In this document: positions 14,005 through 34,033 of the stretch, one piece after another | Position numbering within the stretch: position 1 is the stretch's first letter | Layout: every line of letters begins with the position of its first letter | NCBI GenBank assembly: GCA_009995545.1 | Contig: JAACPI010000005.1 | Location: 28,244-92,243 of the forward strand | Reading direction: 5' to 3' | Source of the DNA: a bacterium | Lineage (GTDB): Bacteria > Patescibacteriota > WWE3 > 2-01-FULL-39-13 > JAACPI01 | Length of the DNA stretch: 64,000 nucleotides | The notes under the pieces: model-generated | Databases searched by the model: none | Told to the model about the DNA's origin: nothing | What the model saw: only the letters and a program-made list of their open reading frames with translations | Position numbers and translations under genes: made by a program

Positions 14005-15795
14005 CTACTTTTTTTCTATATCAAACAATTTAGACTTTATTGCTATATAGCCAGGAGCTCTTAAATTAAAAGCGCTTTTAAATAATTGACCCTCCGCTTT
14101 TAAGGTACCTTTGTCTGTCTCAAAAGTTACTTGGCTGGTGTACCCATTGTCACTAAAACTAACTGACACACTTTTTACTTTTGAGTAACCTGTACCTATC
14201 TCATCTGCTTTTTTTCTAAGGTCACCCATAGAGTAAGGATCTCCTCCCCAACAACTTGTGGTAACGGGCGTAATTCTATCGGTGTCTTTTCCGGCTTTTA
14301 GTAACACATAAGCATTTAATATATCGGCCATTTCCTCTTCATTTAACCAGGGGTGGCTTCTACCGCACTTATCCGAACTAACGGAATAACTTTCGGTATA
14401 CCAACCCTTATAGAACCAAGGTGACCCACCCCGTTTTTCATATGCATCTCCAGGCCAACCACCTTTTTTATCCCAACCAACATCTTCAATGTAACCACCC
14501 GTAGTAGAGGAGTAGTAAGCTACAGTATCCTCGTTATCTAGAATTTTATTCTTAGTATCGTCAACAGCCTTTTTCCAATTTGGGTAGTCCCCATTTTTCA
14601 CACTATCAGCCTTACTTTTAGAAAACACCTGACAACTTTGGCTAGTACATATAGACTTGCCTGCCTTGATATACCTGTAAGCATAGGATCTTCCCGCGAC
14701 AGCCTGTGCCTTTAGAGCTTCGCTTGGCCAACTTGTAGGCATTTCAGCAAGTCCGTATAAATAGTATTGAAAATCCATTTCTCCATAACCATCGACACTT
14801 ATTTTACTGGGCATACCATCTTTGGTTTTTACCCCTGTTTTATAATAAAACTTTAATATTTCGTCGTATTTTTTCCCGTCATCTGCTCTTCCTTTAGCGC
14901 CATACTGACTCATACCTTTATAGTGTGTATAAGCTCCGTAGCTAAAAGCAGCAAAAGCGGGGCTAAAACCCGGGTTATAGCTTGGGGCAGCGTGTGGATC
15001 ATCGGTTTGCACGCCATCTCCCAAAGAAGAATAGAACTCTCCTCCACTTTTTTTAGCTAAAATATCTTGCTGCTTTTTAAGCAAGCCATTTAACTTTTTA
15101 CTTAAACTTCCTAAGTCACTATTCTTAGCAGAGAGCTCTTGCTGCTGTTCTGCTAACTTTTGCTCTGTATCTGCTTTAATAGAATCTAACTTAGTTTTTT
15201 CGGCAAGTACCTCGTTTTGTAATTCTTCTAAACGGGCTTTGTTTTGTTTGTTGATGATGATATCAGAATTTATATTAGAAATAACATTTAGAGAGTCATC
15301 AAAGTACTTTTTTAAGTACTCGGCTCTCTCTGTTGTTGCTAATAAAGAGTTAGACTGCACAATTGCAGTCATGACATTATTTGGGCCTTTTTTATAAAAA
15401 TTGCGAATAGTTCTATCTCTAAGCACAGTTTGGGTAGTTAAAACACCCGACTTAGTATTTATATCGTAAGTAATACCATCTATTTGGTTTCCTATATTAC
15501 TTATTTCCACTTCTATCTGTTTTATAGAGAAAAGTATTTGGCTTAAAGAACCCGACAAGTTTCCAACCTCACCTTTTATTTTAGAAATTTGATCCGATAA
15601 ATTATCAATTTTATTTTGGGTTTTTTGGATATCCTCTTCAACCTTTTGTAGGTCATCCTCGGCAAAAATATAGGCAGAATTATTGACTATAAAAGTCGAT
15701 AAACCTAACATTAAGGTAACAATGATTAAAAAACTAATTCTAGGCAGTTTCATATTTTTTATTATAACCTTTTTATGGGGTTTTTTGGATGTCAA
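14005..15795 (-). CDS. SpoIID/LytB-domain cell-wall protein with N-terminal coiled coil
   Basis: The C-terminal half matches SpoIID (YLYGLAEMPTSWPSEALKAQAVAGRSYA...CTSQSCQVF...YYSSTTGGYIE). The N-terminal ~250 aa is a heptad-rich coiled coil. The true start is probably Met-15 (MKLPRISFLII, signal peptide) at 15753. Confidence 0.65.
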   Translation of the reverse strand: MTSKKPHKKVIIKNMKLPRISFLIIVTLMLGLSTFIVNNSAYIFAEDDLQKVEEDIQKTQNKIDNLSDQISKIKGEVGNLSGSLSQILFSIKQIEVEISNIGNQIDGITYDINTKSGVLTTQTVLRDRTIRNFYKKGPNNVMTAIVQSNSLLATTERAEYLKKYFDDSLNVISNINSDIIINKQNKARLEELQNEVLAEKTKLDSIKADTEQKLAEQQQELSAKNSDLGSLSKKLNGLLKKQQDILAKKSGGEFYSSLGDGVQTDDPHAAPSYNPGFSPAFAAFSYGAYTHYKGMSQYGAKGRADDGKKYDEILKFYYKTGVKTKDGMPSKISVDGYGEMDFQYYLYGLAEMPTSWPSEALKAQAVAGRSYAYRYIKAGKSICTSQSCQVFSKSKADSVKNGDYPNWKKAVDDTKNKILDNEDTVAYYSSTTGGYIEDVGWDKKGGWPGDAYEKRGGSPWFYKGWYTESYSVSSDKCGRSHPWLNEEEMADILNAYVLLKAGKDTDRITPVTTSCWGGDPYSMGDLRKKADEIGTGYSKVKSVSVSFSDNGYTSQVTFETDKGTLKAEGQLFKSAFNLRAPGYIAIKSKLFDIEKK

Positions 15796-16486
15796 AAGTA
15801 TCTATGCGGAGACAGCTACCTATAACTGTACAGCGTCAGGTTTTGTGTCGGTAACCTCCGAACCACCTGTGGGAGGTCAAACCAGGGTAATCGCATCAGT
15901 AAATGGCCTAGATCCGCTATCCTGGAACCAATCAGAATATCAGATGGAAATTCAGGCACGAACAGCTTCAGGGTGGCAAACTATAAACCCCAGCACTGCT
16001 AAAATCGGAAAAAGCGGTTCAGGAACGACTGCAGGTAACTACCCCTCGGACAGTATAAACTCGGGCAATCTGAGAGTTATTGTATGGCACAGAAATAACC
16101 TATTCTTTGCAGATGATTGCTCCGTAGCAAGCACTTTTGCTGCAGCAAACCCCAATCCTGTTCCGGCACCAGCTCCGGCACCAGCTCCAGCACCCGCACC
16201 CGCACCGGCCCCTTCAAGCTCCCCCTCGTCCGGTTTAAGTCCAGATCAGGCTTTGGATAAAGTAAAAAATATGGTCGGTTGGGTTTATAATTTAGCTTTT
16301 CCAATTGCAATTATTATTGCGGTTGTAAAAATACTTATTAACTTAATGGCGCTGGCTACAAGTTCGGGAGATCCAACTAAATTACAACAGGTAAAAGAGG
16401 AGCTCTATGCGATATTAATGGGATTGTTAGTAATTGGCGGTGCGGCTACCTTAATTAATATTCTGGGTAATGCCATGGGAATATAG
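15722..16486 (+). CDS. VirB2/TrbC-like pilin paralog 1 with extra N-terminal secreted domain and (Pro-Ala)n linker
   Basis: Signal peptide MIKKLILGSFIFFIITFLWGFL, a ~150-aa domain, a PAPAPAPAPAPAPAPA linker, then a C-terminal two-helix pilin module homologous to the three downstream genes. The start is chosen at the second Met because the track start (15683) overlaps the divergent gene further. Confidence 0.4.
   Translation: MIKKLILGSFIFFIITFLWGFLDVKSIYAETATYNCTASGFVSVTSEPPVGGQTRVIASVNGLDPLSWNQSEYQMEIQARTASGWQTINPSTAKIGKSGSGTTAGNYPSDSINSGNLRVIVWHRNNLFFADDCSVASTFAAANPNPVPAPAPAPAPAPAPAPAPSSSPSSGLSPDQALDKVKNMVGWVYNLAFPIAIIIAVVKILINLMALATSSGDPTKLQQVKEELYAILMGLLVIGGAATLINILGNAMGI
16163..16210 (+). 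repeat. (CCGGCACCAGCT)-type tandem repeat encoding a Pro-Ala linker
   Basis: ccggcaccagctccggcaccagctccagcacccgcacccgcaccggcc. Confidence 0.8.
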
Positions 16487-16495
16487 ACAGAACAT

Positions 16496-16524
16496 TTGAT
16501 TTAATCGGAGTTATCTAATATTAT
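16496..16524 (+). promoter_or_regulatory. sigma70-like promoter for pilin paralog 2
   Basis: TTGATT, 17-bp spacer, TATTAT, about 30 nt upstream of the 16555 start. Confidence 0.35.
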
Positions 16525-16554
16525 TTAATAAGTTACAGTAAATTTTTATATTTT

Positions 16555-16917
16555 ATGATTAACATTAACGAGCTTTTAAGTTATGTAACTTTAAGGGTAG
16601 CCCATGCAGGTACAGCAATTGACTTACCGGATACTGGGGGAACTAGCACCGTGTTTGGAAGTTTAAGTGCATTTGTTACTTTCATAATTAATTTGGTTTT
16701 TGGTGTAGGTATATCCATTTCGTTAGTATTTTTAATTGTTTGTGGTATAAAATATGCCATGTCCAGTGGCGACCAAAGCAAAGCTGAAGAGGCACGAAAC
16801 TGTATAACAAACGCCATTATTGGTGCTGTAGTTATTATTGCCTTTAGATTATTAATAAACTTGGCTTTAAACTTATTTGGATTCAAAGGAGTAGACGAAC
16901 TACTACCAACTTCGTAG
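16555..16917 (+). CDS. VirB2/TrbC-like pilin paralog 2 (probable major pilin)
   Basis: 120 aa. A long leader is followed by two hydrophobic helices flanking IVCGIKYAMSSGDQSKAEEA. It has its own promoter and a strong terminator. Confidence 0.45.
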   Translation: MININELLSYVTLRVAHAGTAIDLPDTGGTSTVFGSLSAFVTFIINLVFGVGISISLVFLIVCGIKYAMSSGDQSKAEEARNCITNAIIGAVVIIAFRLLINLALNLFGFKGVDELLPTS

Positions 16918-16945
16918 TATTAAACTTTAATCTGAACTTAAAACT

Positions 16946-16977
16946 AAAGCCTCTGCTTTTGCAGGGGCTTTTTTTAT
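16946..16977 (+). terminator. rho-independent terminator
   Basis: AAAGCCTCTGC-TTTT-GCAGGGGCTT followed by TTTTTTT. Confidence 0.65.
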
Positions 16978-17049
16978 GCCCAAGTAGGTTTATTCAAAGG
17001 GTGCCAGTTTTAACTACACTTTAAAACTGTAATACTGTAATATAGGGAT

Positions 17050-17373
17050 ATGAACAGAGTACTAGCAAATTTTGGCAACCCAGACAACACAGCAGTTGGA
17101 AAACTTACAGACGTCACAAATCTATCGGATATCTTTGGAATACTGTACAACTTATTATTTGGAGTAGGGTTATCGCTTTCAATAATTTTTGTAATTGTTT
17201 GTGGTATAAAATTTGTCACGTCAGCGGGCGATCCCAATAAAAAAGCTGAGGCAGGTCAGTGCCTAACCTGGGCGGTTATATCTGCGATTGTAATTGTTTC
17301 GTTTAAGTTAATACCTTTCTTAATTTTTAATATCTTTGGTTTTGACGACCCTACAACAATAATAAACACATGA
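17050..17373 (+). CDS. VirB2/TrbC-like pilin paralog 3
   Basis: 107 aa; IVCGIKFVTSAGDPNKKAEA is homologous to paralog 2. Confidence 0.45.
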   Translation: MNRVLANFGNPDNTAVGKLTDVTNLSDIFGILYNLLFGVGLSLSIIFVIVCGIKFVTSAGDPNKKAEAGQCLTWAVISAIVIVSFKLIPFLIFNIFGFDDPTTIINT

Positions 17374-17771
17374 ATTTAATTAATTTGGTTTTTATTTACA
17401 TAAATGTATATGGCAAAAATTTTATTTTTGCAGCTTTTGAAGAACCCCCATTTACTCACGACCAGGCTGTAAAGGTTGACGAGGCTTTCAATAGTTTGGC
17501 TGGTGGTATAACAACTTTAATACTATCCTTAAGAAACGTGACCTTGGCTTTAGGTTTTTTATTTATTTTAGTTGGAGGAATTAAACTAGCGACAGGGCAA
17601 GGAGACCCGGAAAAAATTGCTTCAGGAAAACAGACACTTATGTGGGCTTTAGCTGCAATGGTTTTAGCTGTATCCTTTTGGGCCATTGTAAAAGTTGTAC
17701 TAGGGCAAATTTTCGGGGTTACCGGGATAGGGGACGAAATAATGTTCGATGTAACCATACCCCATTTTTAG
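17370..17771 (+). CDS. VirB2/TrbC-like pilin paralog 4 (divergent)
   Basis: 133 aa; ILVGGIKLATGQGDPEKIASGK has the same helix-loop-helix layout; 4-nt overlap with paralog 3. Confidence 0.4.
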   Translation: MNLINLVFIYINVYGKNFIFAAFEEPPFTHDQAVKVDEAFNSLAGGITTLILSLRNVTLALGFLFILVGGIKLATGQGDPEKIASGKQTLMWALAAMVLAVSFWAIVKVVLGQIFGVTGIGDEIMFDVTIPHF

Positions 17772-17835
17772 TTAAAATAAAAAACTTCCAGTAACTTCTT
17801 TTATAGTCCAATTTCTCTTATAATTAGGGCAATAC

Positions 17836-20800
17836 ATGTTTAAAAAATATCTAATATTCACCACTCTTTTAATAGCCATCTTTTTAAATAATACGACTCC
17901 CGTCTCTGCAGCCTGTGTGGATATGTTAGATTATTTTAAACCTAACTCAGATAAAGCAGTTTTAAGTAGCGGGGGCTTAACTTATGTTGTTGAAGATGGA
18001 AGGGTAATAGGAGGTAAACCAACATTTTACCTTGCAAAAAGTGCAGATGGCAGTGTTTACGAAGAATTCGCCTATGATGATCAATTTATTTATCACGGAA
18101 GAGATACTTCATGGGCAACAGGTCCTGGACAGGATGTTAGCTGTTTGGACGGCAGGGCAGCGGGTTTTACTATGGTAGACGGGTCCGTAGGCGGGTGTGG
18201 AAGTGTGGATTTACAAAATTACACGCCAGCCAAGTGGGTTAAAAGGAATATGTGTGAGGGCGAAACTATGTCTTCAAATCATACCGTTGTTGCCTTTGCA
18301 AAGGATGGAGCTACTTGTGGTTGTTGCGAAGCACCATTTACAGGGTCTGTATCTTTTAAAATGCGGTTCAACAAAATTTATAGTGTGTACTCAAACCCCA
18401 ACAAACCCGAAATGCCACAACTTAATAACGTAATAGAAATAGAAATTGTTGAGGGAAACGGCCAGGGTGAAAAATTCTTATTTAATAAAGAATATGGGTG
18501 GGTAGGATTTATAAGACCTGGGGGAGAAACCAGTATCGCAGACGCCTTAAGACCAAAACCCGGTTCATCAATCGATTACTGCCCCTTTGTGCCAAACGAT
18601 GGAGACGGTTTAAGCTGTGAAAGTCCCTTAGTGCTAAACGCAGATACCTCTTGTGCAACATGTTCAGCAGATGGGGAAGTTGAAAACGGGTCCAGTATTT
18701 GGCAAACCCTACTCGCAGGAGTAACAGCACCCTTTACCAGCAAGGTTAAACGAATGATAACTTTAAAAGACTACAAAGGAGCTATTCCTCCTATAGACAG
18801 CTACGCAAGCAGACAAAAAGGATCTGCAGAAGAATCTCCCTTAGCCTACTTTACCACCCACCTAAATCAAAATATGGAGTCAACCTATGGGGGAGCGCCC
18901 CAAACCGGGGGAGCTGGCGACGTAGAGGTGCCTCCAAAAATTGCAAATATAGATAGATTTTTACCTCCAGGAAAATCTACGACAGATCTACAACAAGAAT
19001 ATATCCGGTGTCTTGAAACCCCAACCGAGGTCGATATAGTAATTGAGGGAGCACCTAATTTAAAACACGCTGACATGCGGGTATACTGTGCCCAAAAAAT
19101 AGCCAGCACAATTACCAATAGTTTTTGGTCTACACCCACAAATCAAATAAGCTGGATACCTCCAGTAGGATACACTAAAGAAGAAGCTTTTGGAGTTGAA
19201 AAAACTAAACAATATAATGAATACCTGGCGGAGGCACAAACTAATTATTTAGCAAAAAATTATAGTAACGAACAAAAACAAGAGATTGTATTTAACACTA
19301 TAAAGCAAAGACAGATTAGTAATAGTATTAAATACGATCCAAAATATGCGCTGATAAATGATCCAAATAGCGGTAAAATTCAAACCGCCGCCGTAAGCCA
19401 AGGATTCACAGTTCCTGCCTGTATGTTTCCTGTGAGAACAAACGTTAAAACGACTTGTGAAGAACTTTTGGGACAAAGAGAGGTCAAGTTTGAAAGAGAC
19501 ATCGGAACAGCTAACTGTAGTAAAAATGCGGATGGGACCGGAGGGTGCGGGGGGAAAAGTACTGATATAGATATTGGAGTAGTAGTACAAGGATACGGAG
19601 GCTCAGATATTACACCCGGTATATCCATTATTGGCCAAGAAACAACCTGTGATGCAAACTGCGCACTAAAACAAAATTCCTCAGGAAGCTCTTTAGCTAA
19701 TAATGACAGTATAAAACTAGCATCCACTGTTGGGGGCTATAACGGGGGGTATAAATCACCGGGCTACACTGCTTTAACAAGTACGTTATATACAGCATTT
19801 ACACCACCAGGTGTAAAGGCTTTAACAGAAATGGCTGAAGAAATACCGATCAATGTAAGTGCTAAAAGTTCTGGTTTATTTTCGGGTTTAGGAAATTTAA
19901 CCTCAAACAGTAATCAAGAAAACAGTGTTGCGGGTTTTGCAAAAAAATGTGCCCTACCCAAACTTACTTCAATATCCCTAGCCCCAGGAACCGATGAGGC
20001 CAATAATTTAGAAAATTTCCTGTACCAGTGCGAAGGTGAGGCAGGAATAGCTACCGACAGTTATTGTGGTAGTGTAAATAATTCAATGAGCAATAGTAGT
20101 AAAAACTTCACAATTACTAGAGGCGGAGTAGATTTAAACGTGGATCCTAACAATAAATATTATTTTTTAGACAAATCTTCAGACTTAAAGTTATCTGTAG
20201 CTAATAGGTATGTGGATGGCGCAACTTTAATTTTAAATCACCAAGTGGTAGTGATGAACCCAGGGCAAACATCTGCATCAAGATGTGGCAATACGCTAGA
20301 GGAATCCAACGGAACCTTTTATCAAATTATGTATCTACCAAGGGCGTTGCCTCCGGAAATAAACGTTTCAAGCCATGCAGACTGGCTTAACTATGCGTCC
20401 GTTCTTGAATATAAGGGAACGGGATATACAAACTCGGTATCAACTTTCAATGTTAAAGAAGGGTATTACAAAATTCAGGTAAAACATTTTCCTTGCTTAC
20501 ACGATGCACAAAGTTACCTGCCAGACAGTGGTGTTATTAAAATGTTTAAAGAAAATACAGATAAAAATTTTTGTGCAAAGATAACCAATAACTCCAATAT
20601 GCCAGGTGGAGGTTACGCAAGCCCGATTACCCACGAAAGGTACAATAACGACCAAACTCAGACCATGGGTTGTACCTTAGCTGATCCCTACAACGTACTT
20701 GCAAATAACTCGTGCGGTGGGCTACACGGAAATAACCCTGAGGATAACTTTTGGAGCCGAGTTACAGGTATAAAGTTGGGAGACGGGGATATAGTTTTTA

Positions 20801-21405
20801 ATAACAAGTACACCTACTCAGCAGAGTGGTTAGTTAAAGGCAAAGAGATGTATACAAAAATGTTTGGTATAAATTTTGACGGTACAGGAAGTTGCAAAAC
20901 TAGTTTTCCAACGACTTTAGTAGAGGTAAAAGGGGAAGAGTGCTTAAATTTAAGTAATAGAGATATTGGCCAAGTTAACCCAGGAGTGCCTGTAGACCCA
21001 GATATATCTATGAGCTTAGATCCACCTTATAGTTCACCCTCTAATTTACCTGCTAGCGGAAAAGCTATGTATTACTCACGAGGGGTGATGGATACAGCTA
21101 TGGCAAACCAACGCAAAAACTACCCAGGAAAAATACCCGACGGTTTAAGTATGCAAAACAAGGGTAAATATAAGGGATTTGTAGCCCTACTTAGAGCAGG
21201 AGATATTGGTAGAGAAGTTTACATAACAAATCCTAAAACTAACCAGGTAGAAGGGCCTTTCTTAGTAGTAGATGTTGCAGCAATGCATGACATACCCTCT
21301 CTGTTACAAAGAAACTGGGTAGTAGACGTTGATTACGATACAGCTGTAAGGTGGGGAATGGCAGGCGTAGGTCCGGCCAAGGTATCTGTTTACGAATCAA
21401 ATTAA
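17836..21405 (+). CDS. giant secreted cysteine-rich surface protein (1189 aa)
   Basis: Signal peptide MFKKYLIFTTLLIAIFLNNTTPVSA and more than 40 Cys with many paired CxxC/CGG motifs. It is G/N/S/T-rich and has no TM, and lies directly downstream of the pilin array. Confidence 0.5.
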   Translation: MFKKYLIFTTLLIAIFLNNTTPVSAACVDMLDYFKPNSDKAVLSSGGLTYVVEDGRVIGGKPTFYLAKSADGSVYEEFAYDDQFIYHGRDTSWATGPGQDVSCLDGRAAGFTMVDGSVGGCGSVDLQNYTPAKWVKRNMCEGETMSSNHTVVAFAKDGATCGCCEAPFTGSVSFKMRFNKIYSVYSNPNKPEMPQLNNVIEIEIVEGNGQGEKFLFNKEYGWVGFIRPGGETSIADALRPKPGSSIDYCPFVPNDGDGLSCESPLVLNADTSCATCSADGEVENGSSIWQTLLAGVTAPFTSKVKRMITLKDYKGAIPPIDSYASRQKGSAEESPLAYFTTHLNQNMESTYGGAPQTGGAGDVEVPPKIANIDRFLPPGKSTTDLQQEYIRCLETPTEVDIVIEGAPNLKHADMRVYCAQKIASTITNSFWSTPTNQISWIPPVGYTKEEAFGVEKTKQYNEYLAEAQTNYLAKNYSNEQKQEIVFNTIKQRQISNSIKYDPKYALINDPNSGKIQTAAVSQGFTVPACMFPVRTNVKTTCEELLGQREVKFERDIGTANCSKNADGTGGCGGKSTDIDIGVVVQGYGGSDITPGISIIGQETTCDANCALKQNSSGSSLANNDSIKLASTVGGYNGGYKSPGYTALTSTLYTAFTPPGVKALTEMAEEIPINVSAKSSGLFSGLGNLTSNSNQENSVAGFAKKCALPKLTSISLAPGTDEANNLENFLYQCEGEAGIATDSYCGSVNNSMSNSSKNFTITRGGVDLNVDPNNKYYFLDKSSDLKLSVANRYVDGATLILNHQVVVMNPGQTSASRCGNTLEESNGTFYQIMYLPRALPPEINVSSHADWLNYASVLEYKGTGYTNSVSTFNVKEGYYKIQVKHFPCLHDAQSYLPDSGVIKMFKENTDKNFCAKITNNSNMPGGGYASPITHERYNNDQTQTMGCTLADPYNVLANNSCGGLHGNNPEDNFWSRVTGIKLGDGDIVFNNKYTYSAEWLVKGKEMYTKMFGINFDGTGSCKTSFPTTLVEVKGEECLNLSNRDIGQVNPGVPVDPDISMSLDPPYSSPSNLPASGKAMYYSRGVMDTAMANQRKNYPGKIPDGLSMQNKGKYKGFVALLRAGDIGREVYITNPKTNQVEGPFLVVDVAAMHDIPSLLQRNWVVDVDYDTAVRWGMAGVGPAKVSVYESN

Positions 21406-21415
21406 TAATTAATAT

Positions 21416-22453: not shown

Positions 22454-25400
22454 TTAAATTACTACCACTCACACCACCACATAAAGTACCACAGCTGAAT
22501 ACCGAACAAGGGTTTACCGCAAAAGCCGAACCCGTTCCACCAGACCTTATTTCGTAATGTAAATGCGGGCCAGTGCTGTTACCAGTACTTCCAACCAGCC
22601 CCACCTGTTGCCTGTGTATAACTGTTTGACCTGTCGTTACATCTATTTGACTCATGTGGGCTAAATATATGTAAATATCCGCGCTGTTTGCTTTTAAAAC
22701 CACCAGGTTACCATAACCACTTGTATTCCAACCTGCAGAAATCACTGTAGCAGAACCGTTATAAGGCGATAAAATAGGGGTTCCAGTAGTAGCTCCGTAG
22801 TCTATACCCGTGTGAAAATTATACTTTGTAGACCCTGCCTGTGTAAAAGATCTCCAGCCAAAGCAGGAAGTTTCGGTAGGAGCCACAGGATTTGCGTCTA
22901 GTCCAGAGGCAGAACTACCGGCAAAGTTAGCTGCACCTCGGCAGGCCAAAGTTGGGTCATCAAAAATGCTTCCCATGTAGGCCGTTGCTCCAAAATCTCG
23001 ATCATCCTGAGCTACACTACCCCCTAGTATCATTATAATAAAAACAAGAATTATAGCTAAAGCGTAAAGCAGTATTTTTACTACAAACTTAGTAGGGTTA
23101 ACTATTAAATCATCAACTAAATTTTTAAATGCATAGTAAACACCTTTTATATCCCCCTTAAGTAAACTCATTGCCGATTTAATTACCGCTTGACCTACCT
23201 TCGCTATTATTAGGGCCAGTAAGGCGGGTACGGCCTGTGGACCTGTCAACCCTGCTGGTAAAAACTTAGAAAACACACTACCCAGTTTTCCTAACGCGGA
23301 GACGATAGCTTTATAAAAAGCTTTGTTTGCATACTTCATTCTCCACAGTCTTAAAAAGACTTTAGCCTGTCTAACTGGACCGTATCCAGGCTTGTTATAC
23401 CTCCACAACCTTCGAGTAAATTTTCCAATGCCAAAACTCTTAATTTTAAAAACTCCGTATAAAAGTTTATGTTCTAACGTAGCAAAAACGGTGCTCTGTA
23501 CTGCATTAAGCTTGGTTGCTACCCAAGGCAGGACTGCCATATACTTTACTAATTTCCCATCTCGGATAAATTTCTGCCCTAACAGGAGGGTAAGTGATAA
23601 AAAGTCGTCCCTGTCTACACCTTTTTTTTCTAAAGATTCTAAAGTTTTGAAAATCGAGATAAAGGATTTCTTCAGAACTGCGGTATCCCCCGTATATCCG
23701 GTAAGATTACCTCCAGCTATAAGCGCATCTATAAAGTCCGCATTTTTAGTTAGTTCCCATTGCTCGTACCAGCCCTTGAAGAGGTCGTGAAAATTACTAA
23801 TGTTAACTACACCACCCACAGCGGGCACATTCGAGGACATTGTGTTTAGCGCAGCAAGAACATTGACTAAACCATCAAGCTGTCTTGCGGAAATATGCAC
23901 CCTCCCCATATCTGTACTGCTAAAGCTGTTTTTAAAGGAAGTAAACTTATTTTTAGTTTGCAAGTATGTTTCTCCCACAAATAAACCGATTTTGTTACCA
24001 CCAATTTCTGCAACATTTAATCCGTTGATAAAGTCTCCGGGATACAAATACTCTTGCTGGCTTAAAAAAGCGGTGAAAAAGCGGTGAGTTGCGAACTCAG
24101 TATAACCCTCCCCTGTTAAACCAATAAAATCCTGGGTTTTAACACTTGCGGTTTTCACTAGATTTCTAAGCTCCCCTAGATTACTAGCACCAAAAGCCCT
24201 AAGTGGTAATTTAATTTTATCTAACTCCTTTTGTATGGGAGTATACTTTGCTAATAGATCCCACTTACCCAAAAATACATAGGGTTTATAGAGATCCCCT
24301 TTTAGCACGGCGTCTAAAAATTCCTGCTGAGCCAGCATAGTGTTCCGAGTCTCCACGTAGTCCCTCAAGCCTATGGCTCGGGATAATCGTCTTCTAAAAT
24401 CGCCCCTCTGAGCTATGGGTATACCTGCAGAAAGAGTATCTAATATATCTTTTCTACTCTCCTTAAGTAAGGTTAAGCTGTCATTAACCAAGACTTCTTT
24501 AGCTTTCATCACGGCATCATCGAGGTTTGCAAAAGACTGCTGAGCTAGTAAAAAGTCTCTACTCTTAGCATCAGAAAAGGTCCCAGGTAATACTTTAGGG
24601 TTAAAAGCTCCTTCTGAAAGCCACTCCCCAAGTCTTTTATCTTTCTTATCAACACCGATTGAAAAATCCAGAACCTCTCTAGCTGCTGCTGCACTAGAAA
24701 AACCTAAAGTTTTCCAGTTATTTCCAGTTAAAACATAATTTTTAAAATCCTGATAATACCTAACATCTTTGCCACCCATACTATCTAAAAGCTTTCTTGC
24801 CTGTAGTTTTGATTTAACTATCGCTCTGCTACCGCTGACTCCCTGAACCATGTCGCCAAGGGTATATCCTTTGACAATTTCCGCGTCTAGTTTGGTAGCA
24901 TAAGTAGCCGCAACACTGTCTGTGGACAGAAATCTCTCTAGGTTAGGGTTAATCGCCCCTGCGGAGGCAATTATTCCACCAGGAGACTCCATTGCCGTGT
25001 AAAGTTGGGTGTCATTAAAGAGCGGTTTACCATAAGCATCCACCCAAGTCCCCCCTTGATGGGCAAGTTCTTTCTCCATCAACTCTATAAGTTTCTCATC
25101 GACACCTGCCCTCGCACCCACCCTCTTCCCTATAGACTGGCTTTTTTCAACCCACCCTTCAATAGACTTTGCGTAGTCCTTGTAGCCAGAAACCCCATCA
25201 ATACCTATTGCCCCTTCTAAGGTAATGGGGTTTCCTCGAAGCGTATGGGTAGTTTTGGAGGTAAGGATTTGATTATTTACAATGTAACCCGTTCCCATAT
25301 GTTGCTTATCCACGTTTCCCGACATAATCTCCCGTAACATCTTCATTTCAAGCTCGCGCTCGATATCAGACCACTGTAGAACTCCCTTAGCCCAGTTATT

Positions 25401-25757
25401 TAGTGTTTTCTTTGCCTGCTCTCCTGGGTTTTTCCAATCTGCAGGGTTTAAAGAAATCTCTACCTGGACACCCGCCAAATCCTGAAACTCGTCCTCTCCG
25501 TAATTTATTAAACCATTTGCAGCTTTTTCAGAAGTGGCATTAAAAAGAGCTTTTTTGTAGGTATCGATATACATCTCCTTCGTCTTAGAAGGAAGGCTCT
25601 CAAAATACTCGAAAGATTCTTGGCTTAAAACACTTTTTAAAACCTGAGACTCAAAAAGCTCGGTAGGGATATTTATCTGTGCGCTTGGTGTTATTGTGGG
25701 CCCAGGGTTCATGGGTCTTCCTGGACCCCTACGAGGACCTCCTCTTTTTTGTGCCAT
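22407..25757 (-). CDS. large T4SS-associated membrane protein with C-terminal M23 (LytM) peptidase domain
   Basis: C-terminal HTGIDYGATTGTPILSPYNG...GYGNLVVL...YLAHMSQIDVTTGQTV...GSTGNSTGPHLHYEIR is a complete M23 signature (HxxxD, HxH). Two to three TM helices precede it. The ~850-aa N-terminal region has a basic RGGPRRGPGRP head. Confidence 0.65.
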   Translation of the reverse strand: MAQKRGGPRRGPGRPMNPGPTITPSAQINIPTELFESQVLKSVLSQESFEYFESLPSKTKEMYIDTYKKALFNATSEKAANGLINYGEDEFQDLAGVQVEISLNPADWKNPGEQAKKTLNNWAKGVLQWSDIERELEMKMLREIMSGNVDKQHMGTGYIVNNQILTSKTTHTLRGNPITLEGAIGIDGVSGYKDYAKSIEGWVEKSQSIGKRVGARAGVDEKLIELMEKELAHQGGTWVDAYGKPLFNDTQLYTAMESPGGIIASAGAINPNLERFLSTDSVAATYATKLDAEIVKGYTLGDMVQGVSGSRAIVKSKLQARKLLDSMGGKDVRYYQDFKNYVLTGNNWKTLGFSSAAAAREVLDFSIGVDKKDKRLGEWLSEGAFNPKVLPGTFSDAKSRDFLLAQQSFANLDDAVMKAKEVLVNDSLTLLKESRKDILDTLSAGIPIAQRGDFRRRLSRAIGLRDYVETRNTMLAQQEFLDAVLKGDLYKPYVFLGKWDLLAKYTPIQKELDKIKLPLRAFGASNLGELRNLVKTASVKTQDFIGLTGEGYTEFATHRFFTAFLSQQEYLYPGDFINGLNVAEIGGNKIGLFVGETYLQTKNKFTSFKNSFSSTDMGRVHISARQLDGLVNVLAALNTMSSNVPAVGGVVNISNFHDLFKGWYEQWELTKNADFIDALIAGGNLTGYTGDTAVLKKSFISIFKTLESLEKKGVDRDDFLSLTLLLGQKFIRDGKLVKYMAVLPWVATKLNAVQSTVFATLEHKLLYGVFKIKSFGIGKFTRRLWRYNKPGYGPVRQAKVFLRLWRMKYANKAFYKAIVSALGKLGSVFSKFLPAGLTGPQAVPALLALIIAKVGQAVIKSAMSLLKGDIKGVYYAFKNLVDDLIVNPTKFVVKILLYALAIILVFIIMILGGSVAQDDRDFGATAYMGSIFDDPTLACRGAANFAGSSASGLDANPVAPTETSCFGWRSFTQAGSTKYNFHTGIDYGATTGTPILSPYNGSATVISAGWNTSGYGNLVVLKANSADIYIYLAHMSQIDVTTGQTVIHRQQVGLVGSTGNSTGPHLHYEIRSGGTGSAFAVNPCSVFSCGTLCGGVSGSNLNGRGECYAEYEPYLP

Positions 25758-25831: not shown

Positions 25832-27289
25832 ATGAACAAATCTGGCTTAAAACAATTCGGCAAACTATTCATCTTATTTTATATTTTCATTTTTATACTA
25901 ACTGCATTTTTAGTAAAAACAGGTATAGCAAACTATAAAACTCACGTTGGAAGATATTGGGAAGACGAAAAACATTTGGCCATGATTATGCCCAACGCAG
26001 GGGATCGTTTAAACAATAATGTATACGCCTTATCAGTACCTGGATGGGTACCTTGGTCTGGGGGTATAAATGCTAAAATTGCGGGAATAGAAGCAGCTTA
26101 CGACTGTGTGTCTAACATACAAGGTTTTGGTCAATGTGCTACCACCGGAGTTGCGGAAACTGCAACAGTAGCCTTTCAAGGGGGAACTTACTCCGAGTGT
26201 AAAAAAGTAGCAGAAACTGCGGATTTAAACTCAGGAACTTTAACAGAAACGGAGAAATGTCCTATTGAAGACTCCATGCTAAACAAGCTAAATAGCGAAC
26301 AAACTTCCGATACAATCACTATGGCAAAACCCATAAAAGGAGGGTTTATGGGCTTAACAACCTACGTTACTAAACAAGTATCCTTAGAAAGCGAAAATTT
26401 AGCCAATACCACATACTATGCAGACTACATGCAAGAACAATTACCGATTTTCGGGGCTAAAACTGCTAAAGCATATACTTGGGAAGGGTTCTTAACCGAC
26501 ACTACTTTAGGAGAGGGGTTTTTTAATATCTGGAAGACAGCCCTTAATTTTTCTTACTATTTAATAATAATTCCTACAGTAGCCTTTGGATTTGCAATAA
26601 TGTTTAGAATGCAAATAAACCCACAAACTCAAATTACCCTAATGCGGGCTATACCTAAGTTGCTCATTACAATACTCTTAATTACTTTTTCGTACCCAAT
26701 TGCCTCCTTAATGATTCAGCTAGCCAAGCCGATTACTGATGTAGTTATAGGGATGCTAGCCTCTTTTGGAGATGCGGCTACAAACAGCATGAGCCCAGAG
26801 CTCCAACAAGGGGCATCTGGAAATTTTATAATGTTCATGCTTTTGTATACTGTAGTTGCCAGCTTAGGTGGAGGGTTTGTAGGAATAATAATATTTGTAA
26901 TACTTCTTGTTATGTGGGTAATTTCAATGATAAGGTATTTGTTCGCAATAGTAATAATAAGCTTTAAAACAGGTATTTTAATAGCCTTTGCCCCTCTAAT
27001 TCTTTTAGTTTCGGCTTTTCCTGGCAAAGAAGGCATGATTAAAACTTATTTTATGAACTTAGCCAGTAAAATCTTTGGCCTAAGTGCAATATCCGTAATG
27101 TATGCGGCTTCTTTTTATGTAATATTTATAGGATTTGCAAGTGCAAAATTCATAGTTATGCTGGCCTCAATATTTATGAGTATCGGTATAATGTGGAACT
27201 CACCCAAGGCCCCAAAACATTTAGAAAAAATGTTGGGTGTAGAACCCTTATTTGGAGGGGGAGATGCGGGACCGCCAAAAAGAAAATAG
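25832..27289 (+). CDS. VirB6/TrbL-like polytopic membrane protein
   Basis: Signal/TM, a ~200-aa periplasmic-type domain, then at least six TM helices. This architecture and its position next to the VirB4-like ATPase are typical of VirB6 family channel proteins. Confidence 0.4.
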   Translation: MNKSGLKQFGKLFILFYIFIFILTAFLVKTGIANYKTHVGRYWEDEKHLAMIMPNAGDRLNNNVYALSVPGWVPWSGGINAKIAGIEAAYDCVSNIQGFGQCATTGVAETATVAFQGGTYSECKKVAETADLNSGTLTETEKCPIEDSMLNKLNSEQTSDTITMAKPIKGGFMGLTTYVTKQVSLESENLANTTYYADYMQEQLPIFGAKTAKAYTWEGFLTDTTLGEGFFNIWKTALNFSYYLIIIPTVAFGFAIMFRMQINPQTQITLMRAIPKLLITILLITFSYPIASLMIQLAKPITDVVIGMLASFGDAATNSMSPELQQGASGNFIMFMLLYTVVASLGGGFVGIIIFVILLVMWVISMIRYLFAIVIISFKTGILIAFAPLILLVSAFPGKEGMIKTYFMNLASKIFGLSAISVMYAASFYVIFIGFASAKFIVMLASIFMSIGIMWNSPKAPKHLEKMLGVEPLFGGGDAGPPKRK

Positions 27290-27363
27290 AAAAACATAGT
27301 AAAGTCGCTTCCTGCAAAAGCTTTAATAGTTACTTACCTCCTGTTTACTGCTAAAATTAGGTT

Positions 27364-28761
27364 ATGCAAATTGAGTCTGCCAATAAACAACACCCTATTC
27401 CTCAAAATGTTATGGACGTGGAGTTCAAACTTATTGGGGATTTAACTGTTAGACAATTTAGCTACTTAGTAGTATTTGGCATCTTAATCCTCATAACCTT
27501 TAAAATTAGCTTACCTGGGATTTTTAAATACCCCTTGCTTTTAATTGAAACTTTAGCAGGGCTTGGATTTGCCTTTTTTCCAATGAATGATATTACTCTA
27601 GATAAGTGGGTAATAAACTACATCAATGCAATCAAAAACCCAAGGCTTAGAGTTTGGCAACACACTATAAATATTCCAACCTTTTTTACATTGGATGTCA
27701 CTAGAAAAACCCAAAGCAGTAATCAACAACCTTCCTATAACCAAAAAAGAGTAAGTATCGATGATTTTTTTGCTAGTCAAAAAGACAATAACCAAACTCA
27801 AACACCAAAAGATTTTGATGATGACACCGACTTAAAAACTAAGGAACAAGAATTTTTTAACCAAATAGGTGTAGCTACTAAGCCCAAAAAAATTAGCGAT
27901 TCTGAGCAATTAAATTTGGCTAAATCATTACATCAGGACGAACACGAATCCAAGCAACAGTTTGTTAATCACACGCCACCGGTTACTACTAATCAGTTAC
28001 CTATAACCCCTAGCAAAGATACTAAACCAGAAAACAAGATAGAGATTAAGGTAAACTACAGCAAAAATATGGAAGAAATGAACCAGCTAAAAGATAAACT
28101 AATTAAGGAGATAGAAAAAAATAAGTATAAAGTAATTGAAGGTAAAGAGGACATACTCGAAGAAAACTCACAGCAAGTACCTCAATCAAATGTAAAGGTA
28201 GTGACAGATAAAGCCGAAAAAGTTGGGTTAGTGCCCCCACCTACTACACCTACGATACCTGCTTTAGAGCAAGTTAAACCCGATATAAAAGTTAGTGCTC
28301 CCGTTGTAGAGGAGTTAACTACCCCAGTTAAGGATAAAGAAAAGGAACCTACTAGCGTGTTTAGTAGTTTTTTGCACAGTTTGAAATCTAACAAACAAAA
28401 AGAAGGGAAAGAAATAAAGGAAAAGCCTAAAACTCCAGATAATAATAATATAAAAACAAGTGCACCAACTGGAGCTATCTCTACAAACCCGGTTAAGGCA
28501 AATATAATAATTGGAACGGTAGAGGATAAACAAGGAAACCTGCTTCCAGACTGTATTGTTATAATTAAAGACTCTGATAATGAGCCGATGAGGGCCTTAA
28601 AGACTAATAATTTAGGGCAGTTTGAATCCTCTACATCCCTTGAGAACGCAGATTACAGAATAGAAGGTATTAAAGAAGGATATAAATTTACACCAGTTGC
28701 GGTTAGTGCTTTAGGAAAAGCCCTAGATCCAGTAAAATTAATAGGAGAAAAAATATTATAA
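27364..28761 (+). CDS. membrane protein with VirB3/PrgI-like N-terminus, long disordered linker and C-terminal carboxypeptidase-regulatory-like beta-sandwich
   Basis: N-terminal two-TM hairpin (FSYLVVFGILILITF...LLLIETLAGLGFAFFP), a P/T/K/E-rich ~250-aa linker, and a C-terminal IIIGTVEDKQGNLLPDCIVIIKDSDNEPMRALKTNNLGQFES matching CarbopepD_reg-like domains. Confidence 0.35.
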   Translation: MQIESANKQHPIPQNVMDVEFKLIGDLTVRQFSYLVVFGILILITFKISLPGIFKYPLLLIETLAGLGFAFFPMNDITLDKWVINYINAIKNPRLRVWQHTINIPTFFTLDVTRKTQSSNQQPSYNQKRVSIDDFFASQKDNNQTQTPKDFDDDTDLKTKEQEFFNQIGVATKPKKISDSEQLNLAKSLHQDEHESKQQFVNHTPPVTTNQLPITPSKDTKPENKIEIKVNYSKNMEEMNQLKDKLIKEIEKNKYKVIEGKEDILEENSQQVPQSNVKVVTDKAEKVGLVPPPTTPTIPALEQVKPDIKVSAPVVEELTTPVKDKEKEPTSVFSSFLHSLKSNKQKEGKEIKEKPKTPDNNNIKTSAPTGAISTNPVKANIIIGTVEDKQGNLLPDCIVIIKDSDNEPMRALKTNNLGQFESSTSLENADYRIEGIKEGYKFTPVAVSALGKALDPVKLIGEKIL

Positions 28762-28785
28762 CTGCCTGTAAATAAATAATAACCC

Positions 28786-29484
28786 ATGGAAACCACTAAG
28801 GTAAACGCATCTACACAAGAGCATTTAGATATATACGATATAAAAGAAGATATGGTGATCTTAAAAAACGGTGCCGCATCCGCTGTAATACAAACTAGTG
28901 CTATTAACTTTGAACTTCTGTCACAAAGAGAACAAGATGCAGCTATTTTTGCATACTCAGGACTTTTAAACTCTATTAGTTTTCCTATGCAAGTCATTAT
29001 TAAAAATAAAAAAATGGATATTTCTAACTATATAGATAAAATATCTGAAGCAAGAAAAAAAATTGAAAGCCCCTTGCTACAAAAGGCAGCGGAAGACTAT
29101 CAAAACTTTGTAAGCGGGATAGTACAAAATTTTGAAATTTTAGACAAAAGCTTTTATGTCGCAATCACTTATAACGAAGGTTTAATAGTACCCGGAGAAA
29201 ACCCCTTTAACTGGTTAAAAGATCTACTTGGTTTTGGACACAGGGCTAAAAGCCAAATCGATGTTGCCGACATAGCGGCAAAGGCTAAAAGCCAGCTTTC
29301 ACCAAAAACAGAGCATATTGTAAAAGAGTTTAGAAGAATAAATATTCAAGCAAAAAGACTTAACACAGAGGAGCTAATTAAGTTATTTTATGAATATTAC
29401 AACCCAGAAAGCACTATAAATAAAGAGGCCCAAGAAAATGTGGCAGATTACACTACCCCTATGGTAGAAACTTTACAAGATTAA
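28786..29484 (+). CDS. hypothetical soluble protein of the T4SS-like cluster
   Basis: 232 aa, no TM; its end is tightly coupled (2-nt gap) to the VirB4-like gene. Confidence 0.35.
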   Translation: METTKVNASTQEHLDIYDIKEDMVILKNGAASAVIQTSAINFELLSQREQDAAIFAYSGLLNSISFPMQVIIKNKKMDISNYIDKISEARKKIESPLLQKAAEDYQNFVSGIVQNFEILDKSFYVAITYNEGLIVPGENPFNWLKDLLGFGHRAKSQIDVADIAAKAKSQLSPKTEHIVKEFRRINIQAKRLNTEELIKLFYEYYNPESTINKEAQENVADYTTPMVETLQD

Positions 29485-29485
29485 A

Positions 29486-31615
29486 ATGAAAATACCTTTT
29501 TTAAATACAAAAAAAACAGCTACCTTACCTCCCCCAGTACCTCAAAAACCGGGGAGTACTAATGTTACAAGTTCCCCAACGCCGTTAAAAGAGGGGATTA
29601 AAACAGCAGACATAAAAATAAACACTAAAGAGGCCAAAGTGGATAAAGCAGTAAATACTTTTTCTGCTGGTGTCACAGATATTAAAGATATAATAGCTCC
29701 GGCCTCAATCTATGTAGATTTTAACCACTTAAAGATTGGAAACAAATTTTACAGAAGTTTTTTTATCTCGGGATACCCAAGATATGTTGGAGCTAATTGG
29801 TTAACCTCCTTAATCAATTTTGAGCACCCTGTAGAACTCTCTATGTTTTATTACCCCATAGAGGCTAAAGGGGTTTTAGAGGATCTAAGAAAGAAGATTA
29901 CAGAATTTCAGGCTACACTTTCAACAGACAGAGAAAATGGCAAGGTGATGGATCCAAAGGTTGAGGCTGCCCTTAAAGACGCGCTCGCCTTACAAGATAA
30001 ATTAGTAAAAGGAGTAGAACGATTTTTTCAATTCTCTTTTTACATCACAATTCCAGCCGATTCACTAGAAGAGTTGGACAATACGACCAAGATGCTTCAA
30101 GGGGTTTTGGGAGCACTGCTTATTGTAGCTAAAGAAAGCACTTTACAAATGGAGCAGGCATTTCAGTCAACAATCCCACTTTGTGTAGATAAAATGCTTT
30201 ATGTTAGAAATATGGACACCTCTTCTATTGCCACAACATTTCCTTTTACATCTAGTGAACTAACCAGAAACGAAGGAATACTTTACGGAATTAACAAACA
30301 CAACGGCTCTTTAATTATCTTCGACAGATTTTCTTTAGAAAACGCTAATTCCTGTATTTTTGCAACTTCTGGTGCTGGAAAATCCTATCTGGTAAAACTA
30401 GAAATTTTACGTTCCCTAATGTTTGGCACAGAGTGTATAGCCATCGACCCAGAAAGAGAGTATAAATCCCTGTCGGAGGCGGTAGGGGGAGAGTTTATTG
30501 AATTTTCTGAAAACTCAGCTTCTAAAATTAATCCGTTTGATATACCGACCACAGATAATCAGGAGGGTGGGGAGCTTGCTGAAAATGCATTAGGATCAAA
30601 AATACTTAGCTTACACTCTCTGTTTAAAATAATCTTTGGAAATATGAGTAACACCGAAGAAGCTATTTTAGACAAAGCTATTGTAGAAACCTACCGACTA
30701 AAAGGAATCGGACCAGACCCTAAAACACACGCTAACGAATCACCAATTATGGAAGATCTTTACAAAGTACTATTAGGAATGGATGAGCCAGAGTCCAAAA
30801 ACCTTTCGGCAAGGCTAGAAAGGTATGTTAAAGGTTCTTTAGCAGGAATATTTAATCAGCGAACTAATATTAAGTTAGATAACCCTTTTACAGTTTTTTC
30901 CGTTAGAAATTTAGAAGACGTTTTAAGACCCATTGCCTACTACATTATTTTAGACTTTATTTGGACTAAGGTGAAAATGAAAATGAAAAAAAGACTTCTT
31001 GTAGTAGACGAGGCTTGGTATTTAATGACCCACGAAGACTCCGCCTACTTCATGTACTCCATTGCAAAAAGAGCTCGAAAATATTATTTAGGGCTCACCA
31101 CCATTAGTCAGGATGTTAACGATTTTTTAAATTCCGAACACGGCCAAGTAATCATAACTAACGCGGCTATTAAAATACTGTTAAAACAGTCTCCCAGCTC
31201 TATAGATAGATTATCCGAAGTTTTTCATTTATCTGAAGGAGAAAAAAGACTTCTATTGTCTGTTGGGATAGGGGAGGGACTCTTTTTTGCAGGTAATAAC
31301 CATGTGGCTATGCAAGTTGTTGCTAGCAAAGAGGAACATAAAATTGTAACTACAAACCCAGAAGAAGTATTAAAAAAACAGGCAGGAATAAAAGAGGCGG
31401 AACTGAAATCTGAGATCACAGCAGGAAGGGCTTTAAACCAAGAAGATAAACCTAAAACAGAACCAATAAACGAAGAGGTGGTAAACAAAACTCTAGAACA
31501 AGTTCAAGAACCAAGTAATTCTATAGAGAATACAAATGTAAAAGATAATGTATCTAAAACAGCAGAAAGTAAACCATCCCAGGAATTAAAAAAGAACACA
31601 ATTGCGCTGGAATAG
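29486..31615 (+). CDS. VirB4/TrsE-like conjugation-type ATPase
   Basis: Walker A ATSGAGKSY and Walker B LLVVDEAWYLM; the 700-aa size and N-terminal non-ATPase domain are typical of Gram-positive VirB4 homologues (DUF87/AAA-like). Confidence 0.7.
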   Translation: MKIPFLNTKKTATLPPPVPQKPGSTNVTSSPTPLKEGIKTADIKINTKEAKVDKAVNTFSAGVTDIKDIIAPASIYVDFNHLKIGNKFYRSFFISGYPRYVGANWLTSLINFEHPVELSMFYYPIEAKGVLEDLRKKITEFQATLSTDRENGKVMDPKVEAALKDALALQDKLVKGVERFFQFSFYITIPADSLEELDNTTKMLQGVLGALLIVAKESTLQMEQAFQSTIPLCVDKMLYVRNMDTSSIATTFPFTSSELTRNEGILYGINKHNGSLIIFDRFSLENANSCIFATSGAGKSYLVKLEILRSLMFGTECIAIDPEREYKSLSEAVGGEFIEFSENSASKINPFDIPTTDNQEGGELAENALGSKILSLHSLFKIIFGNMSNTEEAILDKAIVETYRLKGIGPDPKTHANESPIMEDLYKVLLGMDEPESKNLSARLERYVKGSLAGIFNQRTNIKLDNPFTVFSVRNLEDVLRPIAYYIILDFIWTKVKMKMKKRLLVVDEAWYLMTHEDSAYFMYSIAKRARKYYLGLTTISQDVNDFLNSEHGQVIITNAAIKILLKQSPSSIDRLSEVFHLSEGEKRLLLSVGIGEGLFFAGNNHVAMQVVASKEEHKIVTTNPEEVLKKQAGIKEAELKSEITAGRALNQEDKPKTEPINEEVVNKTLEQVQEPSNSIENTNVKDNVSKTAESKPSQELKKNTIALE

Positions 31616-34026: not shown

Positions 34027-34033
34027 ATTTATA

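Follow-up and report, generated by a model that had tools for sequence, protein, structure and literature searches.

The 64-kb stretch analyzed here (contig JAACPI010000005.1; hereafter the window) derives from a metagenome-assembled genome (MAG) of candidate division WWE3 (Katanobacteria), one of the ultrasmall Patescibacteria, and carries a gene cluster of ~16 kb (coordinates 15722–31615) next to the replication origin region. We interpret this cluster, with a probability of roughly 80%, as a chromosomal, vertically inherited type IV secretion system (T4SS) of the Patescibacteria that belongs to the MPF_FATA branch and serves contact with a host cell and not conjugation. An initial annotation of the same DNA had proposed a chromosomal, non-conjugative T4SS-like machine beside the origin, and the gene content, synteny, absence of conjugation genes and published literature all agree with that proposal. 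Because this class of system has already been interpreted in print as a chromosomal non-conjugative T4SS (PMC10633639, PMC12102498, PMC12857230), the novelty of the assignment is low.

All 11 open reading frames (ORFs) of the initial annotation are present as it had placed them, and they fall into three transcription blocks. The first is on the + strand (15722–21405) and contains four small pilin genes followed by a 1189-aa ORF; the second is on the − strand (21416–25757), with ORFs of 345 and 1116 aa; and the third returns to the + strand (25832–31615), with ORFs of 485, 465, 232, and 709 aa. A promoter scan was uninformative, yielding 46 sites where 43 are expected. The features of the locus are listed in the table.

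Features of the WWE3 T4SS locus and its flank (window coordinates; AF2, AlphaFold2; TM, transmembrane)
Feature	Coordinates	Strand	Basis
Pilin 1	15722..16486	+	PF18895 19.6 bits, E 1e-3, below gathering score of 26.6
Pilin 2, VirB2-like	16555..16917	+	PF18895 39.5 bits (cutoff 26.6); two TM helices
Terminator-like hairpin	16946..16971	+	11-bp stem and T run directly 3′ of pilin 2; -22.9 kcal/mol, z-score -3.2
Pilin 3, VirB2-like	17050..17373	+	PF18895 43.5 bits; 43% identity to pilin 2
Pilin 4, VirB2-like	17370..17771	+	PF18895 38.2 bits
Secreted Cys-rich modular protein, 1189 aa	17836..21405	+	Signal-peptide-like N-terminus, 29 Cys
C-terminal double-psi beta-barrel (barwin/RlpA/expansin-like) domain of the 1189-aa protein	21049..21402	+	AF2 and Foldseek
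Bitopic membrane protein, 345 aa	21416..22435	-	TM residues 28-46, large extracytoplasmic part
M23 protein, 1116 aa	22407..25757	-	M23 domain at residues 981-1075 (nt 22533-22817), 86 bits
Polytopic membrane protein, 485 aa, putative VirB6/PrgH-like	25832..27289	+	TM pattern
PrgI/VirB3-like membrane protein, 465 aa	27364..28761	+	PF12666 35.3 bits (cutoff 27)
TrsD/TraC-like protein, 232 aa	28786..29484	+	NCBIfam VirB4_plasma E 1e-9, TrsD 3e-7
VirB4 ATPase, 709 aa, MPF_FATA/CD1110 type	29486..31615	+	NCBIfam CD1110 385.7 bits (cutoff 325)
Origin-region context	31629..36487		dnaN(-), jag/khpB(-), yidC(-), yidD(-), rnpA(-), rpmH(-), dnaA(+), DnaA-box cluster

The VirB4-like ATPase that the initial annotation recognized at the end of the cluster scores above the CD1110 cutoff, matches P-loop_TraG (106 bits) and the solved VirB4 C-terminal domain (PDB 4AG5, E 2.5e-51), and has intact Walker A (GAGKS) and Walker B (VVDEA) motifs; it is of the monoderm MPF_FATA type. 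It is 59–67% identical to proteins from WWE3 MAGs and 51–55% identical to Dojkabacteria/WS6 proteins, its nearest matches in genomes are all from WWE3 or Dojkabacteria (51–75%), and proteins from outside the candidate phyla radiation reach 37% at most. In the plasmid collection, every one of the nearest relatives comes from the monoderm Bacillota or Actinomycetota, at 30–37% identity. Similarity to the archaeal DNA importer CedB is weak (E 7e-12, far under the family cutoff). A related genome, MAS3.bin101, has a second, divergent VirB4 paralogue (L004, 8352–9929; 28% identity) ~4 kb downstream of the first.

The 232-aa ORF immediately upstream had been described as a small soluble protein, and this description has to be replaced: it is TrsD/TraC-like and corresponds to a split N-terminal part of VirB4. 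The 232-aa and 709-aa ORFs are one base apart and jointly span most of the VirB4 profile, with the former covering positions 18–102 of CD1110 and 101–230 of VirB4_plasma, and the latter positions 172–735 of CD1110. An orthologue of the 232-aa protein also matches PF26593 (TraC-like), and the pair is best described as a VirB4 with a detached N-terminal part, in the TrsD arrangement of pGO1-type systems. The 465-aa protein was predicted to combine a VirB3/PrgI region with a carboxypeptidase-regulatory-like domain. The PrgI part scores above the PF12666 cutoff (the N-terminal fragment alone gives 38.8 bits) and after it come a long, charged linker and, at the C-terminus, a beta-sandwich-like domain; the second part of the prediction falls short, the CarboxypepD_reg-like match of this C-terminus being 19–22 bits against a cutoff of 32, although the domain is conserved in the related loci L001–L008.

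Upstream of these genes is the 485-aa polytopic membrane protein (an identical copy is deposited as GW755_03160), previously proposed to be a VirB6-like channel protein. Searches with this protein and its 21-member family against Pfam, NCBIfam and PDB (by phmmer and by profile), and by tblastn against plasmids, were all empty, and no sequence-profile match thus stands behind the proposal. An AF2 model (pLDDT 68) has an N-terminal helix, a poorly modeled segment of ~200 aa, and a bundle of long helices, and its top five Foldseek matches in PDB are all to TrwI/VirB6 of R388, albeit weak ones (E 0.02–0.16, TM-score 0.29–0.40). In addition, hhalign aligns its most conserved stretch (P..ILL..AFPG) with a polytopic T4SS protein of Pontibacillus (E 9e-5, probability 60%). 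With its topology and gene position, these weak fold and profile matches make it a probable VirB6/PrgH-like subunit.

The cluster opens with the pilin array. The initial annotation counted four VirB2/TrbC-like pilins, and three of these score above the PF18895 gathering score; pilin 1 falls below it, but has the same hairpin and loop as the others. All four share the two-helix hairpin typical of VirB2/TrbC and a common SGDP loop, at pairwise identities of 22–43%. Pilin 4 also matches the NCBIfam Mbov_0395 pilin-like family (E 1e-7, under cutoff). Pilin 1, whose ORF opens at a TTG codon (15683), has a more elaborate architecture, with a signal-peptide-like N-terminus, an extracytoplasmic domain of ~150 aa, a (PA)n linker, and a C-terminal two-helix pilin domain (TM pair at residues 204–222 and 243–261) that is 22–30% identical to the other pilins. 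The terminator-like hairpin directly 3′ of pilin 2 is the only strong one in the region, which suggests an excess of pilin 2 transcripts, as expected for a major pilin; pilin 2 is probably the major pilin of the system. Pilins 2 and 3 (16555–17373) each contain two cysteines flanking the SGD loop (VCGIK ... NC/QC), and pilins 1 and 4 have no cysteines at the matching positions; the pair may form a disulfide staple across the hairpin.

Divergently oriented and adjoining the pilin array is a gene (14005–15795, − strand) for a 596-aa SpoIID-like protein, the N-terminal half of which is a coiled coil; it also has a SpoIID domain, of the lytic transglycosylase type, and could be a further wall-remodeling partner of the T4SS. 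The pilin 1 gene (+ strand, ATG at 15722) and the SpoIID-like gene (− strand, most plausible ATG at 15753) overlap head-to-head by ~32 nt (15722–15753), and signal-peptide-like N-termini are encoded on both strands of this segment. With this arrangement each promoter must sit within the other gene.

The position of the cluster beside dnaN and the origin, as initially described, is clear from the sequence. dnaN begins 14 bp past virB4 on the opposite strand, dnaA is on the + strand at coordinate 34975, 3.4 kb from the cluster, and four DnaA boxes are grouped at 36378–36487 in an AT-rich spacer 3′ of dnaA, 4.8 kb from the cluster. Perfect DnaA boxes are located at 34871 and 36398. We also note that DnaA-box-like 9-mers (TTATCCACA, with at most one mismatch) are scattered throughout the window beyond the dnaA flanks, with 53 present compared with 16.9 ± 4.2 expected from shuffles. 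A MurT/GatD pair implicated in lipid II amidation (36708–38574) lies directly past dnaA and the DnaA-box cluster, both here and in L008/L009.

The same organization is present in related genomes. In three other WWE3 genomes (L002, L008/L009, and L010) the full gene order is maintained as far as the contigs reach: pilins, large secreted protein, bitopic protein (−), M23 protein (−), polytopic protein, PrgI, TrsD, VirB4, dnaN, jag, yidC, yidD, rnpA, rpmH, and dnaA. The PrgI–TrsD–VirB4 core is present in all seven loci recovered in the genome scan, and the adjacency of the TrsD-like and PrgI genes to virB4 is conserved in L001–L010. Divergence between these genomes is considerable. Comparing the window with L008, identity is 75% for VirB4, 59% for both dnaA and TrsD, and 52% for dnaN, but only 34% for the polytopic protein, 28% for the giant secreted protein, 27% for the M23 protein, and 21% for the bitopic protein. 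The envelope parts thus diverge faster (21–34%, versus 52–75% for VirB4, dnaA, and dnaN), as expected of surface or host-facing parts. That gene order, including the virB4–dnaN junction, is kept in five WWE3 loci in spite of protein identities of 21–75% fits a vertically inherited core locus and not a recently integrated element. The locus is therefore old and vertically maintained, with an architecture under selection and with fast-evolving envelope parts.

Genes expected of a conjugative element are absent from the neighborhood. Pfam scans of the window ORFs together with 8 kb further upstream on the identical public contig cover about −24 to +32 kb of the cluster, and revealed no domain of a VirD4/coupling protein, relaxase, or integrase; the initial annotation had reported none of these three, and the span scanned includes the 20 kb on each side over which it proposed a search for VirD4 and relaxase. 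The other sizeable ORFs in the window are either housekeeping genes or have no match. There is likewise no integrase or tRNA-flanked boundary, the only tRNA gene being 8.7 kb upstream (flanking direct repeats were not searched for). This absence is meaningful, as in an actinobacterial relative with a conjugative-looking locus, Embleya, virB4 is followed directly by genes for a coupling protein and a relaxase-like protein, and then an NlpC/P60 hydrolase. Composition had been described as equal to that of the core genome, and this holds for GC content at third codon positions, which is inside the range of the housekeeping genes, although the overall GC content of the cluster is slightly higher than in the rest of the window (0.382 versus 0.342). 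An integrative conjugative element (ICE) was considered and rejected, there being no mobility genes nearby, a conserved synteny with the origin region, and no clear compositional anomaly.

T4SSs of this general form are known from other Patescibacteria. Wang et al. (2023; PMC10633639) described a T4SS in Ca. Southlakia epibionticum ML1 (SEML1_0006–0019, including a pilin array) that is essential for epibiotic growth and has no recognizable relaxase or coupling protein. Quinonero-Coronel et al. (2025; PMC12102498) surveyed 3,035 genomes of Patescibacteria and detected VirB4 in 2,417, most of the sequences falling in a single clade nested in MPF_FATA, together with TrsD, PrgI, scarce VirB6, rare VirB8, and M23-containing hydrolases; VirB2 arrays of 2–11 genes are present, there are almost no relaxases, and the loci are often near dnaA/dnaN. 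A 2025 review repeats this description, and a 2024 perspective calls the role of the Patescibacteria T4SS "completely unknown" (PMC11665869). The main text of PMC12102498 does not discuss WWE3, and we found no WWE3-specific description of a T4SS in the literature. The locus described here shares with Southlakia and the Patescibacteria clade the MPF_FATA VirB4, TrsD and PrgI/VirB3 beside virB4, a divergent array of PF18895 pilins, an M23-type hydrolase in place of canonical VirB1, the lack of a nearby relaxase or coupling protein, and the chromosomal location beside dnaN/dnaA. It differs in belonging to another class (WWE3) and in the extra components of this sub-lineage: a conserved giant Cys-rich secreted protein ending in a double-psi beta-barrel (DPBB), an M23 protein with a predicted cytoplasmic region of ~890 aa, and a fast-evolving bitopic protein of ~340 aa. 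Essentiality for epibiotic growth has been demonstrated only for Southlakia epibionticum (PMC10633639).

The first of these extra components had been described as a 1189-aa secreted Cys-rich protein, and its signal-peptide-like N-terminus and 29 cysteines bear this out. Neither the whole protein nor fragments of it have sequence matches in Pfam, NCBIfam or PDB. Exhaustive HMMER comparisons indicate that it is modular, with an N-terminal module (residues 5–260), a middle part, a second module (740–1050), and a C-terminal domain of ~120 aa. The N-terminal module (~255 aa, window coordinates 17836–18600) is swapped between orthologues of the protein and is also found in further giant proteins, which reach 3118 aa in length. 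An IYH..DTSWA motif is invariant within the module, along with conserved Cys, Glu, His, and Asp positions. The module has no match in Pfam, and a profile search against PDB was also empty.

The C-terminal domain is confidently modeled as a DPBB (AF2 with a 23-sequence alignment; pLDDT 90.7, pTM 0.82), a fold whose members bind or cleave glycan strands. Foldseek matches (probability 1.0) include 7ksn (7e-5), 4avr (1.3e-4), and expansins (1e-3 to 2e-2), the nearest structures thus being those of sugarwin/barwin, PA4485 (RlpA-like), and bacterial expansins; MltA and LtgG come lower in the list. The domain is present in more than 100 among 150 representative proteins listed, at ~50% identity, many of them small, and the family is matched by no Pfam or NCBIfam model. 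The named family members that we encountered are all from Chloroflexota (Caldilinea sp. WP_287482513.1; HHY58973.1). Three aspartates are invariant in the family alignment (D84, D107, and D125 in the numbering of the 150-aa fragment), of which we take D125 to be the candidate catalytic residue, at the MltA/RlpA/GH45 position, from its likeness to the IDLS/HFD motif. The DPBB-ended giant protein was found only in the window, L008, and L010, where it occupies the same slot; in L002 this slot contains a cysteine-containing protein that is unrelated in sequence.

Both proteins of the second block are consistent with their original descriptions. The 1116-aa protein, annotated as an M23-peptidase membrane protein, has an M23 domain with intact HxxxD and HxH motifs and most closely resembles LytM and lysostaphin. 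It has no signal peptide and a strongly hydrophobic helix at about residues 892–910, from which the ~890 N-terminal residues are predicted to be cytoplasmic. The N-terminal 900 residues have no database match, and full-length orthologues are present in L008 (27% identity) and L010 (32%). The 345-aa protein, probably 339 aa with its start at 22435, was expected to be membrane-anchored and has a single TM helix. It evolves fast, with only four homologues by word-index search, and has positional orthologues in L002, L008, and L010 at 21–41% identity. A PDB profile search and an hhalign comparison with the Pontibacillus bitopic protein were empty. It is a candidate VirB8/PrgL/TcpC-like scaffold, a type that combines bitopic topology with an NTF2-like extracytoplasmic domain; the topology agrees, but the role is a guess.

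Among monoderm conjugative MPF_FATA systems, CTn2 of Clostridioides difficile (CD1110), pGO1 Trs of Staphylococcus aureus (TrsC/TrsD/TrsE), and pCF10 Prg of Enterococcus faecalis share with the WWE3 locus a CD1110-type VirB4, a PrgI-family VirB3, and the lack of outer-membrane core components, and pGO1 also has a separate TrsD-like protein ahead of VirB4. They differ in residing on mobile elements and in encoding a relaxase, a coupling protein, surface adhesins, and SLT/CHAP hydrolases, none of which are present in the WWE3 locus; the latter has a pilin array and is located in the chromosomal origin region. Bordetella Ptl, Brucella VirB, and Helicobacter pylori ComB are also non-conjugative and have no VirD4-type coupling protein (PMC12102498, PMC12857230), but all three are MPF_T systems of diderm bacteria, built around VirB7/9/10 core complexes, and their sequences are not closely related to those of the WWE3 locus.

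The closest VirB4 in the plasmid collection (37% identity) is in Pontibacillus sp. ALD_SL1, in a locus (NZ_CP062975.1, 351.8–362.5 kb; L013) on an 898-kb replicon typed as non-mobilizable. This locus strongly resembles that of the window. It has a polytopic protein, a small two-TM protein, VirB4, a TrsD-like protein upstream of virB4 (30% identity), and an M23 protein of ~1050 aa, while the opposite strand encodes a bitopic protein of 364 aa; the annotation shows neither a relaxase nor a coupling protein within 12 kb. In a comparison limited to the 12 proteins of this locus, two pilin-like proteins of the Mbov_0395 family were similar to the window pilins (E 1e-5 to 5e-8); the two bitopic proteins have no detectable similarity. 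It differs in its Bacillota host, in lying beside flagellar genes and not at the origin, and in lacking a DPBB giant protein. Its M23 protein has an N-terminal TM helix and is therefore predicted to be wholly extracytoplasmic, unlike that of the window. A Bacillus mycoides plasmid (NZ_CP036106.1; L014) also has an annotated pilin gene ahead of virB4. Published reviews describe Gram-positive T4SSs as lacking VirB2-like pilins except in Patescibacteria, and it has been suggested that the Patescibacteria pilin was co-opted from diderm systems. The presence of pilin-like genes beside monoderm MPF_FATA VirB4s outside Patescibacteria bears on this suggestion, as a lead and not a conclusion. Through the Bacillota locus, a monoderm T4SS that has pilins and no relaxase could become accessible to study in a cultivable organism.

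Taken together, the genes suggest the following arrangement. A hexameric VirB4 ATPase would sit on the cytoplasmic membrane with its TrsD-like N-terminal domain, a PrgI/VirB3-like anchor, and a VirB6-like polytopic subunit, and would pull VirB2-like pilins out of the membrane so that they polymerize into a pilus or conduit, with pilin 2 probably as the major pilin and pilin 1 carrying a surface-displayed domain. The M23 endopeptidase would open peptide cross-links of the cell wall, the 1189-aa protein would bind or cut glycan strands through its DPBB, and the exchangeable N-terminal module of the latter would act at the site of host contact. Such a machine would serve a contact-dependent interaction with a host cell, a function that we infer, as we do its assembly, the pilus, the identity of the wall that is targeted, and the cargo. 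As to cargo and direction, we estimate protein export or adhesion at a little short of even odds and import of host macromolecules such as DNA at about one chance in four, with the remainder left to other activities.

Several points weigh against this interpretation. Genes for a coupling protein or a relaxase might lie in other parts of the genome, beyond the 64-kb window, and in Patescibacteria VirD4-like matches often occur at a great distance from virB4 (PMC12102498). The locus has no identified VirB8-like component, and the VirB6 assignment of the 485-aa protein is weak. The DPBB domain is a candidate catalyst, and the predicted hydrolases may target either the cell's own wall or that of the host. 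Placement of VirB4 inside the Patescibacteria clade is suggested by best hits.

A conjugation apparatus, whether a degraded ICE or a working DNA export system whose relaxase and coupling protein are unrecognizable or encoded elsewhere, would account for the finding that all of the detectable homologues are conjugation proteins (the CD1110, TrsD, PrgI, and Mbov_0395/0397 ICE families) and that most plasmid relatives of VirB4 are on plasmids typed as conjugative, and there are several ORFs in and around the window without annotation. We nonetheless regard it as very improbable, given that neither mobility genes nor a tRNA-flanked boundary are present within −24/+32 kb, that the synteny with dnaN, yidC, rnpA, rpmH, and dnaA is kept across WWE3 genomes at 21–75% identity with no clear compositional anomaly, and that a survey of 3,035 Patescibacteria genomes yielded only 109 relaxases (PMC12102498).

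Two further alternatives are variants of the same machine and are inseparable by sequence. In one, the apparatus works inward as a ComB/Ced-like system for uptake of host DNA or other macromolecules, supplying nucleotides that the cell cannot make. T4SSs that import DNA without a coupling protein do exist (H. pylori ComB), uptake has been proposed for Saccharibacteria on the grounds that they can dispense with ComEC but not with the T4SS (PMC11665869, PMC12857230), and M23 and DPBB, both directed at the cell wall, could breach that of a host. The similarity of VirB4 to CedB, however, is of the generic VirB4/HerA type, the locus contains nothing recognizable as a DNA-binding or translocase component, and no sequence feature indicates direction; we consider inward transport unlikely. 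In the other, the locus encodes mainly a pilus or adhesion organelle, with a VirB2 filament for attachment and no translocation of substrates. Four divergent pilins head the locus, one with an extra displayed domain, the surface parts evolve fast, and arrays of pilins are regarded as a means of adapting to different host strains (PMC12102498). But the locus retains a polytopic channel-like subunit and large secreted and hydrolytic proteins, and Patescibacteria already adhere by type IV pili (PMC10633639, PMC11623550), a type IV pilin-like gene being present just upstream of the window; a purely adhesive role is thus quite improbable. Returning to the T4SS for host-cell contact, a more elaborate version, which we offer as a speculation with the odds well against it, is that this WWE3 sub-lineage gained a wall-breaching module (the conserved, disulfide-rich giant protein and the M23 protein) acting against the host wall at the tip or base of the pilus, converting a former conjugation system into a feeding or injection conduit, with the pilus possibly ancestral to a relaxase-less MPF_FATA sub-branch that includes Bacillota. 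The pilin-like genes beside the closest monoderm VirB4s (Pontibacillus, Bacillus, and Mycoplasma ICEs) suggest that the pilus may be ancestral there.

Elsewhere in the window, two neighboring 195-aa ORFs on the − strand (5519–6725) are located in a GC-rich patch (0.44 versus 0.35). One of these has an EAD1 effector-associated domain (PF19955, 37 bits) and the other, which matches no family, contains four zinc-ribbon motifs of the CxxC type; the pair may constitute a small conflict or defense module. An Rfam search of the patch (5–7 kb) found no RNA.

The locus adds no new principle, but provides a clean and fully syntenic WWE3 example of the Patescibacteria T4SS with extra conserved parts. The DPBB-ended giant protein, the M23 protein with its large cytoplasmic region, and the pilin with a displayed domain are concrete candidates for the parts of the machine that face the host. 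Knowing the cargo of these systems would help to account for the way in which a large share of bacterial diversity lives at the expense of other bacteria.

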